A stretch of DNA of 64,000 nt from Escherichia coli (GTDB lineage: Bacteria > Pseudomonadota > Gammaproteobacteria > Enterobacterales > Enterobacteriaceae). Made by a program: the position numbers. Shown here piece by piece: positions 48,001-60,000 of the stretch. Location of the stretch: NCBI RefSeq assembly GCF_003991155.1, contig NZ_CP031295.1. One strand, given 5' to 3'. Positions within the stretch are counted from its first letter, which is position 1. Every line of letters starts with the position of its first letter.

Positions 48001-51000
48001 GCGAATCAGCAGGCGGTTTTCCTGGGCGGTCACTACATCTTACAGGGTAGCAGAAACAGGTGATACAGGGGCAGGCGGTGGAGGCCGCCTGTCAGTCCGC
48101 GCGAAAACCCCTGGCAGGCTGACGCCTGCCGGAAGGGAAGCGGGCCACGCTGGCGCGTCGCCCGTTACCCTTCCCGTCTGTGATGTGTCTGACTCAGGAG
48201 TGTTTCTTTCTTATGTTATGGAACTGTTCCTGATGTTGTTGTTCCTTTATCTGCTGCTCTGATTCTGACTACTGCAGTGTTGTTCTGTCTGCCGGGCGCA
48301 CCTTCGGCTCCCGGCTGCCTGGCGGCATCCGGTCGTCAGGCCCGACTCCGACAGGCAGCTGCTGGCGCACCCGCCAGTCTCCGCCGAACCCGCTGGCGCG
48401 GTTTCGGGCTGTCGCTACGGTCCGATGCGTGAAAACCCCGGGCTTGCAGCGACCGTTCCGGTCGCGCCACCCTTGTCGCGCCGTGGCCTGCGCTCCCGGC
48501 ATCCCGGCAAAAGGCCGCCGGGATGTAAGGGGCAACGCCGTTTCGCGCACGCGCTCTCCGTCGTTGCGGCGGGTCCCTGCTCATTGCCTGCCGGTGCCAC
48601 ACACCCGTATGAGTCCCTGTCGCCGGGGGCTGATACAGCCACAACCTGCCGCACTGACTGTCCAGGGTAAATGAACAGCCCACAAAATTTTTTACCCAAA
48701 ACCCGGTAAAAAATTTTGCGTTCTGCCCAGGACAGGTGCGTCAGGCCGTGGCAGTGATGCCCCTTGCGGCGAAGGTTCTCAAACGGGTGAAGTTCATACC
48801 ACAGGGAATACAGCAGCAGGTTCCCGCGAAACGTCAAAACCGCGGCTCCCGAAACTCAACGGGTGATGTTCTTTAAAAATCAGGATTTATTTCAGACTCC
48901 GGCAATACGCATTTATGTGTTCTGTCAGTCATCCGGCTGGCAGGTAATGAGAACGCAGGAACAGAAGGAGGAAAACACCGGAGAACGTCAGACGCAGATA
49001 TGAAAAAAGCAGGTCAGGGACCTGCTTAATCCACACCGCAGAGACTGCACGAACAGTCTTTACGGTTTCATTAATTAACGTCATAAGAGGCTAAATTATG
49101 ACAGTAAGTATTGTTTCACCTTCCGCAGCGGCTGTAAAGCCCCGCCGTCATCCCCGTTTCAGACGCGAAGACATCCCCGCGCCGGAAATTGACCCCGTGC
49201 TGAAAGCCTTCGGGCGACACATTGCCCGGAGTTTTCACCGGGGGCGTGGTGTACACATCCCCGCCATGAAAAACACGGCCTTCGGGCAGGTGCTCCGCAC
49301 ACTCGAACTGAAACGCGCTTTTAACTGATGAGGTGAGCCGCCCCGCGAGGGGCGGCAACAGACGGAAGGAGAACATTTTATGACATTAGCAGCAATCACC
49401 ATGACCGCCCCGGAAGCCGCCAGCCCTGTGCAGATGTACCGCGCGACCTACTCACCGGATGACAACAAACTGCGCCTGTATGCCGTGTCACGTCTTGACC
49501 CGGAGACGTATAAAAAAGTGCATGATGCCGGTTTCCGCTGGGCACCAAAACAGGCGCTGTTTGTCGCGCCAGCCTGGACACCGGGCCGGGAAGACGTGCT
49601 CCTCTCACTTGCCGGAGAGATTGAGGATGAAGACAGCACGCTCGCTGAACGTCAGGAAGCACGGGCGGAGCGGTTTACCGGATACAGCGGAAAGCGGGCC
49701 AGTGAATCCGCACAGGCACTTGATGAAGTGGAAAGACTGGCCGCGATGATCCCGCCCGGTCAGCCCATTCTTGTGGGGCATCACAGCGAACGCCGCGCCC
49801 GTCGTGATGCGCAGCGTATTGAAAACGGCATGAAACGAGCCGTGATGCTCTTTGAACGTGCGGAATACTGGGAAGAGCGGGCGCGGTCGGCACTGCTTCA
49901 CGCGAAGTATAAAGAACGTCCGGACGTTCGCTGGCGTCGTATCAAAAAAATCGAAGCTGATTTGCGCAAGGCTGAAAAGACCATCGCGCAGTCGCAGAAA
50001 TATCTGACGATGTGGCGGGCTGAATCGCTGGATCTGAATATGGCAAAACTCATCAGCAGTCATGACCATATCAGCGCCTGTTTCCCGCTGGATACGTATC
50101 CGCGCCCGGCAGAAAAAAGCCAGTATGAAGGAAGTCGATCGTTATGGTCGGCCCTGGATGATGACATCATCACCACGGAGCAGGCCCGCGAAATTGCGAT
50201 CCGCTGTCATGAACGGCAGATTCAGCGTCAGCAACGCTGGGTTAACCACTATCAGAACCGCCTGATCTATGAGCGTGCCATGCTGGACGAAAGCGGCGGC
50301 GTGGTTACCCGGACACAGGATTTTGAGCCGGGCGGACAGGTTTTCAGCCGGGGCGAGTGGCTGACTATCATCCGCGTGAACAAAAGCAACGGGGCGGTGA
50401 GTTCAGTCACAACGCCGAATTACAGTTTTCTCGGGTACAGCGGCACGATGAAAGTGACGCCCGATCGCATTACGGACTACAAAGCACCATCGGCAGAAGA
50501 GGCTGCCGTCGCCAGTCAGGCCGCTAAGCGTCCGCCGGTAGTCAACTATCCGGGGGAAGGTTTCCGGGAAATGACAAAGGCACAGTGGGCCGCCCTGCCC
50601 CGGGACTGTAAGGCCGTGCGCAGTGTGGCAGAAGCAGAAGACCACGGGGCATACCGGTACCGCCGCACAATGGACAATAATTTCCGCCTGGTGAATGTGT
50701 ATATCTCCGACATGAAAATCACGGAAATCCCACAGAAATAAGGTATATCCCCCCGGGAAAATCCCCGGGGGATGACGGAGATAATGATATGCACAGTCAG
50801 TTAAGAGAACGTATCCGGCTGATGCGCGCAAGGCTGGATAACGCCGCGCCGGTTGCTGAAATCCGGGCTGAATCTCAGCTTTTTGTGACTCCTGCCCCGG
50901 TCTGTGATCGCCTGGTGATGCTGGCGGAGATCAGCAACCGTGATCACATTCTGGAACCCTCTGCCGGCACCGGGGCCATACTGCGGGCGATTCGGGATAC

Positions 51001-57000: not shown

Positions 57001-60000
57001 CAGTGTTGTCCTGTCTGCCGGGCGTACCTTCGGCTCCCGGCTGCCTGGCGGCATCCGGTCGTCAGGCCCGACTCCGACAGGCAGCTGCTGGCGCACCTGC
57101 CAGTCTCCGCCGAACCCGCTGGCGCGGTTTCGGGCTGTCGCTACGGTCCGATGCGTGAAAACCCCTGGCTTGCAGCGACCGTTCCGGTCGCGCCGCCTCT
57201 GTCGCGCCGTGACCTGCGCTCCCGGCATCCCGGCAAAAGGCGCCGGGATGTAAGGCGCAACGCCGTTTCGCAAACCGCGCTTCACGTCGTTGCGGCGGGT
57301 CCCTGCCCGTTGTTGTGTCCGGTGCCATTCACCAGTTTAAGCCCCTGTCGCCGGGGGCATAGACAGCCACAACCGTCTCCGCCAGTCCAGGGGTGAAATG
57401 CACATCCCGCAAAACTTTTTGCCCAGAAGCAGGCAAAAACTTTTGCGGTCTGCCCCCGGACAGTCGTTTCCGGCCGTGGCAGTGATGCCCCATGCGGCGA
57501 AGGTTCTCAAACAGGTGATGGTGAATACCGGAGGGAACAAAAGGCAGGTCCCCGCAAAACGTCAAAACCGCGGCTCCCGAAACTCAACAGATGATGGGGG
57601 CTGAAAACCAGAGAGAGGAGAAAGCAGGATGAGTACCCGAAATATCCACGTTAACACCGCGTCGTACACGCTTCTTGTTGCCGGGAAGAAAAAAAACACC
57701 GGGGAAGAGTGGGACGTCCTGGAATTCAGCAGCCTGACTGAGCTGAAAAAATATCGCAAAAGCCACCCGGAAAAGATGGCCTTCAGTTATAGCTACGCGC
57801 TCAGTCAGGGTGTGGATAAGCAGTTCCGCCATATCAACATTGCGGAAGCCGATCACTTCAAACAGTTCCTGCGTCAGATTAAGCGTGCCGGCCTCGATAT
57901 CCGGGCGATCTGCTGACCGGATGTGATGAATATCCCTCCTGATTGTTGCAATCTTGTTAATGGAGATCGGGGGGATGATATTAAGCGGAAAAATTTTTTA
58001 TTAAATTTATTCTTTCATAAAGGAGTAGCTGTTATGCGATTAGCTTCCCGTTTTGGTCGGTATAATTCCATCCGCCGTGAACGTCCTTTAACGGATGATG
58101 AATTAATGCAGTTCGTGCCTTCGGTATTTTCCGGTGATAAACATGAGTCCCGGAGTGAACGTTATACGTATATTCCAACAATCAATATCATCAATAAGTT
58201 ACGTGATGAAGGTTTCCAGCCATTCTTTGCCTGTCAGAGTCGGATTCGTGATTTGGGACGTCGCGAATACAGTAAACATATGTTACGTCTTCGCAGGGAA
58301 GGGCATATTAACGGACAGGAAGTTCCTGAAATTATCCTGCTTAATTCACATGATGGTTCATCCAGTTATCAGATGATCCCCGGAATTTTTCGTTTTGTCT
58401 GCACAAATGGCCTGGTGTGCGGAAATAATTTTGGCGAAATCCGCGTTCCACATAAAGGTGATATTGTCGGGCAGGTTATCGAGGGAGCGTATGAAGTGCT
58501 CGGTGTCTTTGATAAGGTCACTGATAATATGGAGGCGATGAAAGAAATTCATCTTAACAGTGACGAGCAACATTTATTTGGCAGAGCTGCACTGATGGTC
58601 AGGTATGAAGATGAAAATAAAACGCCAGTGACACCTGAACAGATAATTACTCCCCGTCGTCGGGAAGACAAACAGAACGATCTCTGGACAACCTGGCAGC
58701 GGGTTCAGGAGAATATGATAAAAGGTGGATTATCGGGGCGAAGTGCCTCCGGGAAAAATACCAGGACAAGAGCCATTACAGGTATTGATGGTGATATAAG
58801 AATCAACAAGGCGTTATGGGTGATTGCCGAACAGTTCAGAAAGTGGAAGTCATGATAATATAAGTAAAGCCCCGAAAAAATTTTCGGGGCTTTACTTATA
58901 TTATCATTTTTCGGCATTGCTGTGTCGTCTGATATACCTCAATTTCATCAACCGGATTTCCGGTTGTCTGTAAATATTGTGCCCGCGAAAAATGGTCTGG
59001 CAGGAGGCTGCACAGTTACCGGGTATATATAAGATGGGTTCCCGCTTCGCGGGGCTTCGGCCAGTCAGTATTGTCACTCATATGATATTTTTGTGTGTGG
59101 CCTTCCATGCCGCTTTTGCGGCATAACCGGTATCTGACAATGTCTGTAAGATTAATTGTTCTGCACGCTGTTAATTTCCGGAAGTGATTTCTTCGTGGCC
59201 GGAAGTCGGATACCTTTACTGCTTTTTATCCCAGTATAAATCCGGTAAACATCTGATGCGTAGGCAAGACGTCTCTGGTTCTGGCGTTCGGTTTTCCTGA
59301 ATCCGGCATTGTATGCACCAACGGCCTCCCAGGTGACGCCCCATTTTTTAAATGCTATTGCCAGATAATAAGCACCGGTATAAATGTTCATGCAGGGATC
59401 TGTTGTCAGATGTTCTGGCTTAATTCCGTAGCGGGCCAGTTCGTTAAAATGCTGGGAATCTACCTGCATCAGTCCGCTGCCATATCCCGTTACCGGATTA
59501 ATACCGATGGCATTAACCCGGTAACGGGATTCTTGCCATGATATTGCTCTCAGTAAATCAGGATCTATTTTGTAATCCCGGCCTGCAAGATCAAAGCAAT
59601 CAGTGGCCTGGCAGATCTCATTTATAAACATCAGGCAGATGGCTAACATCCATTTTTTCATTTTTCCACCTCTGGTGACTTTATCCGTAAATAATTTAAC
59701 CCACTCCACAAAAAGGCTCAACAGGTTGGTGGTTCTCACCACCAAAAGCACCACACCCCACGCAAAAACAAGTTTTTGCTGATTTTTCTTTATAAATAGA
59801 GAGTTATGACAAATTAGTTCTTCTTGCTCTCTTTGTGATATTTAAAAAAGCGGTGTTGGCGCAGCTACAACACCGCGCCGACACCGCTTTTTAGGGGTGG
59901 TACTGACTATTTTCATAAAAAACATCATCTTATATTAGGGGTGCTGCTAGCGGCGCGGTGTGTTTTTTTACAGGACGCCCCTGGGGGCGCTGCTAGCGGT

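Follow-up and report, generated by a model that had tools for sequence, protein, structure and literature searches.

What do the three long repeats in the leading region of this Escherichia coli plasmid do, and is each of them one element or more than one? The stretch of DNA analysed here, hereafter the window, covers 64,000 nucleotides (nt) of contig NZ_CP031295.1 (assembly GCF_003991155.1) and holds the leading region of an F-like plasmid, with traM, traJ and FinP to the right of the nic site. An initial annotation had described three highly similar, GC-rich and non-coding repeats in it, each in front of a co-oriented gene block, and had read them as promoters of the Frpo/ssi (single-strand initiation) type, which fold in the transferred single strand and drive early expression in the recipient. 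The answer reached here is that each repeat is very probably a composite cis-acting element, working on the transferred strand while the plasmid is single-stranded in the recipient, in which a promoter hairpin of a known type stands beside a second structured module, called E in what follows.

Two repeat families were returned by a repeat finder, one of 300 nt at 48225, 51524 and 56951 (90–100% identical) and one of 156 nt at 48725, 52036 and 57453 (75–97%), both being joined by intermediate pieces. The three-way alignment that the initial annotation had proposed showed them to be direct units of ~650 nt, in register and in the same orientation: copy A (48225..48880), upstream of a block encoding a 76-aa protein, a DUF3560 protein and a methyltransferase; copy B (51524..52191), upstream of ssb; and copy C (56951..57608), upstream of ygeA/ygeB-like genes, all three assigned to the minus strand. 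Their GC content of 0.61–0.62, compared with 0.524 for the window, and their mutual similarity bear out the first description; the positions given there also held, while the boundaries had to be moved, the repeats being ~25–30 nt wider at either end. The left ~300 nt are nearly invariant across A, B and C (90–100% identical), and in the right part copies B and C share 97% identity, with A at ~75% to either of them. A search of PLSDB with copy B found at least 5000 plasmids and, among the matches listed, 15051 places, about three per record, so the repeats are not a product of chance. Between the end of copy B or C and the ribosome-binding site of its plus-strand gene block there are 20–50 nt; copy A, which also precedes a co-oriented block as had been claimed, is an exception in that a further ~215 nt lie before the 76-aa gene at 49098.

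The strand to be considered is set by the oriT nic sequence GGGGTGT/GGTGCT, which occurs once, as an exact match to that of F, at 59759..59747 (minus). It is thus the minus strand that is transferred and that serves as the template of the plus-strand genes, in agreement with the bottom strand assumed initially. It enters the recipient 5' end first, towards lower coordinates, and the repeats are met 2–11.5 kb from nic, the genes downstream of them all being on the plus strand.

The right ~350 nt of each repeat were compared with the reference F ssiD/Frpo sequence (D90178) and with the ssi sequences of ColIb-P9, the latter taken together with the former from Samuel et al. 2024 (supplementary table 2). 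The full 351 nt of ssiD matched the minus strand of copy C (57600..57251) at 95.7% and that of copy B (52183..51825) at 94.2%, and its positions 17–351 matched the minus strand of copy A (48857..48526) at 78.8%. Copy C stands before ygeA/ygeB-like genes, as does Frpo1 in F, and copy B before the genes from ssb to psiA, as does Frpo2. In F, transconjugants no longer show early expression of ygeA, ssb and yfjA once Frpo1 or Frpo2 is deleted (Couturier 2023, PMC9849209), and, according to summaries of the work of Masai & Arai (in PMC9849209 and PMC7690428), Frpo single-stranded DNA (ssDNA) folds into a promoter for E. coli RNA polymerase, whose transcripts can prime DNA synthesis. Promoters of "class 1", beside classes 2 and 3, have been defined by RNA sequencing and 5' rapid amplification of cDNA ends in F and pESBL (PMC12672017), and 13,089 Frpo homologues have been counted in 6,006 conjugative elements (PMC11541004). 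The identification of the right ~350 nt of each repeat as a putative class-1 ssDNA promoter of the already known Frpo/ssi type is supported by this homology; activity as ssDNA, silence as duplex and early (zygotic) expression have been shown for the F homologues (PMC9849209, PMC12672017) and, by resemblance, would be expected of this plasmid.

DNA folding of the minus strand gave a single imperfect hairpin of ~320 nt per copy, located at 48855..48540 in copy A (with an apex of the F Frpo2 type), at 52166..51839 in copy B and at 57583..57265 in copy C. The calculated energies were –96.0, –121.6 and –108.1 kcal/mol, respectively, compared with –90.1, –109.0 and –92.4 kcal/mol for the plus strand. 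The strand-specific folding for which the initial annotation had called is thus present, the minus strand being favoured by 5.9 (A), 12.6 (B) and 15.7 (C) kcal/mol, which is a modest effect; G:T pairs number 6–8 on the minus and 2–5 on the plus strand. The whole B repeat has a z-score of –14 relative to shuffled sequences. In addition, when the transferred strand between 40 and 60 kb was folded 300 nt at a time in a sliding scan, the lowest energies were those of the three repeats (–90, –108 and –95 kcal/mol; mean –51, standard deviation 14).

Open reading frames (ORFs) are annotated by pipelines inside such repeats in many plasmids, and among those of the window are a 75-aa ORF at 51504–51731 and a 71-aa ORF at 51972–52187. 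One frame is indeed open in all three copies, with the same stop, as real small genes would have it. Nevertheless, a six-frame translation of the three copies revealed no conserved start codon, a scan of six internal ORFs gave no NCBIfam match, and the substitutions follow base pairing, not codons; moreover, the 1-nt insertions and deletions (indels) found within the region in homologues exclude coding. Protein coding of the repeats was ruled out by the lack of an NCBIfam family and of a conserved start and by these indels, which supports the first description of the ORFs as artefacts, and the chance that they represent genuine genes is exceedingly small. The 71-aa ORF, on the plus strand and wholly inside hairpin B, is called "single-stranded DNA-binding protein" in a related GenBank record (L001, 5673–5879), and this label looks like a propagated annotation artefact.

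The left part of each repeat is a different matter. The ssiD alignment ends at 51825 in copy B, which places the left part of that repeat outside classical Frpo, and some 300 nt of every repeat lie outside it. The left ~270 nt, nearly half of each repeat, were shown to be a separate conserved structured module, not Frpo, consisting of two small hairpins, a ~140-nt junction with a long-range closing helix and three internal helices (E), and then a purine-rich tract. The Frpo/ssi-type reading thus stands for the right ~350 nt, on account of the ssiD homology, the gene context and the nic strand, and falls for the left ~270 nt. A covariance model of E (R1) found exactly three matches in the 64-kb window, all of them on the minus strand: 48294..48473 in copy A (155.8 bits), 51593..51772 in copy B (159.4 bits, where the consensus fold and its covariation also place it) and 57020..57199 in copy C (154.8 bits). 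The purine-rich tract forms the 3' flank of E (51500..51590 on the minus strand at copy B, where the plus strand is C/T-rich), and its A+G fraction is 0.55–0.76 in most homologues. Most loci show strong structure (–85 kcal/mol or lower) over the 420 nt next to E on the gene side, and across the 80 nt beyond its other end purines tend to prevail on the transferred strand; among the loci examined, E always had the same orientation relative to the genes.

The reality of the fold is carried by covariation. An alignment of 53 distinct copies of ~180 nt, from many genera of Enterobacterales, was analysed with RNAalifold, which gave 38 pairs, 21 of them with compensatory changes. The fold comprises a variable upstream hairpin, the long-range closing helix (columns 58–63/191–196), the three internal helices and a second long-range helix (columns 64–69/149–154), one pair of which is C:G in 26 and A:T in 25 of the sequences. 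Counted over the alignment, 96.1% of the cells were paired, compared with 31–49% when the partners were slid; cells with double changes amounted to 268, against at most 35 in the controls; and the covariation score was 0.376, against at most 0.072, none of 500 shuffles reaching the observed values. One helix, P2, is invariant by construction, since it served as the search pattern. The 1-nt indels among the E homologues fall in loops, and single-sequence DNA folding of copies A and B recovered the same architecture. Thermodynamics was dropped as evidence for E, with z-scores of only –2.4 to –3.0 for the minus and –1.8 to –2.9 for the plus strand, and at such modest values the case for E rests on covariation.

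As regards the strand on which E folds, G:T combinations exceed A:C ones by 108 to 11 (57 to 11 without one invariant T:G), and the consensus energy is better in the transferred than in the other sense (–35.7 versus –27.4 with RNA parameters; –17.6 versus –8.7 with DNA parameters). Both observations indicate that the folded strand is most likely the transferred one. Furthermore, the motifs CTAGC, GGCGGAG, GACGAC and GAGCCGAAGG are invariant although unpaired, which suggests that a specific factor or a tertiary fold also takes part in the action of E. Part of the E family carries TAGCG(A/T), which we take to resemble the CS-6 motif of ssoA. The ParB-like protein YfjB/HerB was considered as a binding partner of E and found no support, a 2026 preprint reporting chromosomal sites only, with no motif.

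Could the left module have no function of its own, its similarity among copies arising from recombination or gene conversion between repeats that serve as crossover points for shuffling the leading-region blocks? The left ~300 nt are in fact almost identical in A, B and C while the hairpins differ, and a similar recombinant repeat has been reported in IncI plasmids (PMC3817090). In addition, when Frpo2 of the F plasmid (NC_002483, 7850–8660) was compared with copies A and B of the window, it proved to be an exact chimera of both, as would result from a crossover deleting the block between them: window by window, its upper 3' arm, its apex and the first part of its 5' arm are 92–100% identical to copy A, and it is 100% identical to copy B from 52062 onwards (rest of the 5' arm, ssb). 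This switch points to a crossover of two repeats, one A-type and the other B-type, and F looks like the product of such an event, which would have removed the 3.3-kb 76-aa/DUF3560/methyltransferase block; alternatively, the present plasmid gained this block by the reverse event. Homogenisation is, however, insufficient to account for the module, since it cannot explain compensatory changes in 21 pairs over distant genera, the conserved mismatches or the invariant unpaired motifs, and a left module devoid of function is for these reasons very improbable.

Across IncI, IncFIIK and other plasmids, E is better conserved than the hairpin, as judged from sequence comparison. In an IncI-gamma/K plasmid (L003) the E extension is 92–96% identical over ~200 nt (blast) and the adjacent hairpin matches in short pieces only, and in Klebsiella IncFIIK, Salmonella and Enterobacter plasmids the extension is 70–81% identical and lies beside quite different hairpins. 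The F plasmid shares only the first ~98 nt of the extension, followed by unrelated sequence, which is itself common (3189 PLSDB records). The motif CCCGAAACC-N(3-10)-GGGTTCGGCGGAG was sought in 100,044 species-representative genomes and met at 39 loci, nearly all of them in Enterobacterales, with Citrobacter, Yersinia, Rahnella, Pantoea and Erwinia among the genera. Near-identical copies of the E. coli type were also met on short contigs of Gram-positive assemblies (Streptomyces, L011; a metagenome-assembled genome of Erysipelotrichaceae, L016; Bacillus, L043), most likely through contamination with enterobacterial plasmid DNA. Genes for IS110-family transposases were observed inside leading regions near E-containing repeats (L005, 19328–20332; L008, 1077–7060), a plasmid of K. 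quasipneumoniae having three copies, and these transposases may target repeated structured sequence.

Searches for a previous description of the module, or of the repeat, were negative within their scope. Rfam, with its plasmid and ssDNA-type motifs such as STAXI, gave no match at gathering score in the repeats, the E module or the hairpin; at E-values of 5 or less it returned microRNA models only, which fell on the perfect apex hairpin and were discarded as artefacts (22–41 bits, compared with gathering scores of 99–197). Among 50,697 phage records, Microviridae origins included, a distant blastn search with the whole repeat returned no match, the E motif was not found in viral contigs, and a text search of the literature with four E motifs retrieved unrelated primers only. 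Venturini et al. 2013 described IncI "R" repeats longer than Frpo, the extra part being left unanalysed there.

The scheme that we propose for the composite element is the following. On the transferred strand, the right module would fold into its ~320-nt imperfect stem-loop, and the host sigma-70 RNA polymerase would read this structure as a promoter and transcribe the adjacent block, namely the 76-aa/DUF3560/methyltransferase genes for copy A, the genes from ssb to psiA for copy B and the ygeA/ygeB-like genes for copy C. The hairpin transcripts would also be able to prime complementary-strand synthesis, and the conversion to duplex would remove the hairpin and switch the promoter off. From the 5' end of the transferred strand the order is genes, hairpin, E and purine tract; an RNA polymerase arriving from the upstream operon, or a DNA polymerase extending a primer, would therefore have to cross the purine tract and E before the hairpin, and either polymerase would unfold the hairpin and end promoter activity. 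As a compact, GC-rich junction, E would act as an insulator or roadblock, with the hairpin remaining folded and active for longer.

A related behaviour has been described for ssp2 ("Frpo3"), the class-2 hairpin of F, which stalls the conversion to double strand until it is resolved by UvrD, PsiB output being doubled (Fraikin et al. 2026 preprint, 10.64898/2026.01.09.698686). Like E in the function proposed for it, ssp2 is a structure of the transferred strand by which duplex conversion is delayed and early expression extended; unlike E, it is itself a promoter hairpin, whereas E lacks promoter-like boxes, folds as a junction instead of one long hairpin and has no sequence similarity to ssp2.

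A compact group of hairpins on the transferred strand, E could instead be a priming signal, that is, a single-strand initiation site at which the PriA primosome or DnaG would start complementary-strand synthesis beside the promoter. F-like plasmids have no primase gene, ssi sites are known on plasmids and Frpo itself was isolated as one; moreover, the invariant GAGCCGAAGG contains a C-GAA-G core, which we take to be of the kind present in stable DNA mini-hairpins at phage origins. This reading is nevertheless unlikely, in view of the lack of similarity between E and any of the 50,697 phage records, Microviridae origins included, of the IncI plasmids, which have their own primase yet keep E at 92–96% identity, and of the geometry, as synthesis starting from E would run into the promoter hairpin and switch it off.

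The position of E at the end of the preceding operon raises a further question, namely whether it acts as RNA, either as a structured 3' end of the upstream operon mRNA (plus sense) or as a minus-sense non-coding RNA transcribed from the duplex. The plus-sense RNA before E is C/U-rich and G-poor, like a Rho-loading site, and a weak promoter-like pair on the minus strand, TTGAGT-18-GACGTT, at the gene-proximal base of each hairpin points towards E. The G:T and A:C counts and the consensus energies disfavour the plus sense, however, and a minus-sense RNA would lack a terminator behind E, with a single candidate promoter that is weak and lies at a distance of ~330 nt; in addition, no Rfam family matches E at an E-value of 5 or less. 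An RNA role is accordingly quite unlikely. The priming, RNA and homogenisation explanations were all ranked below the roadblock idea. On balance, we tentatively put E forward as a structured ssDNA module, undescribed in the literature and RNA libraries within reach, that occurs with class-1 and related hairpins in thousands of enterobacterial resistance plasmids, forms a four-helix junction on the transferred strand and would set how long the promoter stays single-stranded, either as a barrier to read-through transcription or complementary-strand synthesis or through the recruitment of a host factor.

A number of points weigh against the composite element as proposed. Both strands of the repeats fold well, like those of any inverted repeat, so that the strand preference drawn from energy alone is modest, and the strand test for E is partly biased, its structure having been predicted in the transferred-strand sense. 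Copy A has diverged, and an antisense-RNA locus stands between it and its genes. The F plasmid has only degenerate remnants of E (24–32 bits with the covariance model) and yet has promoter function, which means that the canonical E is not needed for promoter activity. The insulator or roadblock role given to E is a guess, reached by pure reasoning. Finally, promoter boxes are poorly defined: a sigma-70 consensus scan of both strands found no site in the repeats that matched at 9 or more of the 12 positions, and a weighted scan of 19 homologous units, combined with inspection of the pairing, left three weak and mutually exclusive candidates on the transferred strand.

Candidate (i) lies on the 3' arm beside the apex, as TTGCGG-17-TGGACT in copies B (51986..51958) and C (57412..57384) and as TTGTGG-15-TGGACA in copy A (48685..48659), all on the minus strand; it is preceded by the A+T-rich apex and followed at once by mismatches and an internal loop. 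Candidate (ii), TTGCCC-15-TAAACA, is on the lower 3' arm of copy B (51934..51908, minus), and candidate (iii), TTGAGT-18-GACGTT, on the 5' arm near its base (52170..52141 in copy B, minus). A functional Frpo-acrIIA4 construct contained the whole 5' arm and only the upper ~85 nt of the 3' arm (Samuel et al. 2024), which favours candidate (i) as the putative class-1 boxes; the presence of –35/–10 boxes in the hairpins of this plasmid is presumed from homology and not from box scans.

Compared with known systems, the closest relative is Frpo of F (ssiD; Frpo1/Frpo2, ssp1a/ssp1b; Masai & Arai 1997, Couturier et al. 2023), which resembles the repeats in sequence (94–96% for B and C, 79% for A), in its location in the leading region and on the transferred strand, in its imperfect hairpin of ~320 nt and in the genes downstream (ssb to psiA; ygeA/ygeB). 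It differs in that the present plasmid has a third copy, A, before a 3.3-kb block with no counterpart in F, and in that the repeats here carry a canonical E module, in whose place F has other sequence. ColIb-P9/IncI1 ssi1–ssi3 (Bates 1999; Nasim 2004) and the class-1 promoters of pESBL (Wen 2025) are likewise three dispersed leading-region repeats, each before a gene block, and share the A+T-rich apex and a conserved CCCTGGAC / GTCCGGGG segment of the hairpin; nevertheless, ColIb ssi1 and ssi3 match around the apex only (60–115 nt at 74–81%), plus a 28–29-nt piece further left, and these plasmids have a MOBP relaxase and their own primase. More distantly, ssoA of rolling-circle plasmids and the minus-strand origin of filamentous phages are also folded ssDNA read by the host RNA polymerase as a primer-RNA promoter, although they show no sequence homology, belong to other replicons and yield short primers rather than mRNAs.

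The gene blocks themselves were named from the ORF list of the window and the annotation of a 99.7%-identical plasmid, in which the order is antirestriction gene, DUF1380 gene, copy A, 76-aa ORF, DUF3560, methyltransferase and copy B; then ssb, DUF905 gene, ParB-like gene, psiB, psiA, hok/sok and copy C; and then a hypothetical gene corresponding to the 95-aa ORF of the window, a DUF945 gene, a transglycosylase on the opposite strand, traM and traJ. In the window, the block behind copy A (49098..51352, plus) comprises the 76-aa ORF (49098–49328), the DUF3560 protein (49380–50741) and a class I S-adenosylmethionine-dependent methyltransferase (50789–51352). That behind copy B (52213..56270, plus) comprises ssb (52213–52752), the DUF905 gene, the ParB-like YfjB/HerB homologue (to 55065), psiB (to 55554) and psiA (55551–56270), and that behind copy C (57629..58855, plus) a 95-aa ORF (57629–57916) and a DUF932/DUF945 protein (58034–58855). 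Between hairpin A and the 76-aa gene, overlapping the start of the latter, lies the gene of the antisense small RNA (sRNA) AS-pc01, "Antisense to pHK01_035" (49004..49103, minus; Rfam RF02875, 98.9 bits, gathering score 79). This gene is equipped with a promoter-like site (49138..49110) and a terminator-like site (49027..49007), both on the minus strand, and for this reason the A block may be under antisense control besides that of the ssDNA promoter.

Other features of the window include sok, part of a hok/sok (flm) locus between copies B and C (56376..56552, plus; Rfam RF01794, 88.9 bits), and the traJ 5' untranslated region with FinP (60540–60651, Rfam match). A class-2 hairpin (ssp2/"Frpo3"-like) at 46640–46999 on the minus strand precedes the klcA/ardB-like antirestriction gene at 46981 and has an exact TTGCAT-N15-TAAGAT on its 3' arm (46752..46726, minus). 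Two more structured segments were observed on the minus strand: 44000–44399 (–88.6 kcal/mol per 300 nt), right before a 227-aa DNA-methylase ORF at 44384 and in the same position as the class-3 ssDNA promoter described for M.EcoGIX homologues, and 51160–51499 (–83 kcal/mol per 300 nt), which takes in the methyltransferase gene's 3' end together with the spacer just before repeat B. Rfam matches to "Enterococcus sRNA 30" (29412–29576, minus, 194.9 bits) and to the AAC_AAD leader/attI site (21353–21431, plus, 71.2 bits) point to a resistance and integron region in another part of the window.

The promoters found here, of a kind well established in this field, confirm that the window holds a normal leading region of the IncF type. 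E, in turn, is a better-conserved, covarying fold beside the hairpin in IncF, IncI and Klebsiella resistance plasmids; its canonical form is missing from the F model plasmid, with which most of the experiments considered here were carried out, and in present studies of plasmid establishment the cis element is taken to consist of the hairpin alone. If the length of the early anti-defence and anti-SOS burst is indeed determined by E, this module would constitute a general control point for plasmid establishment.

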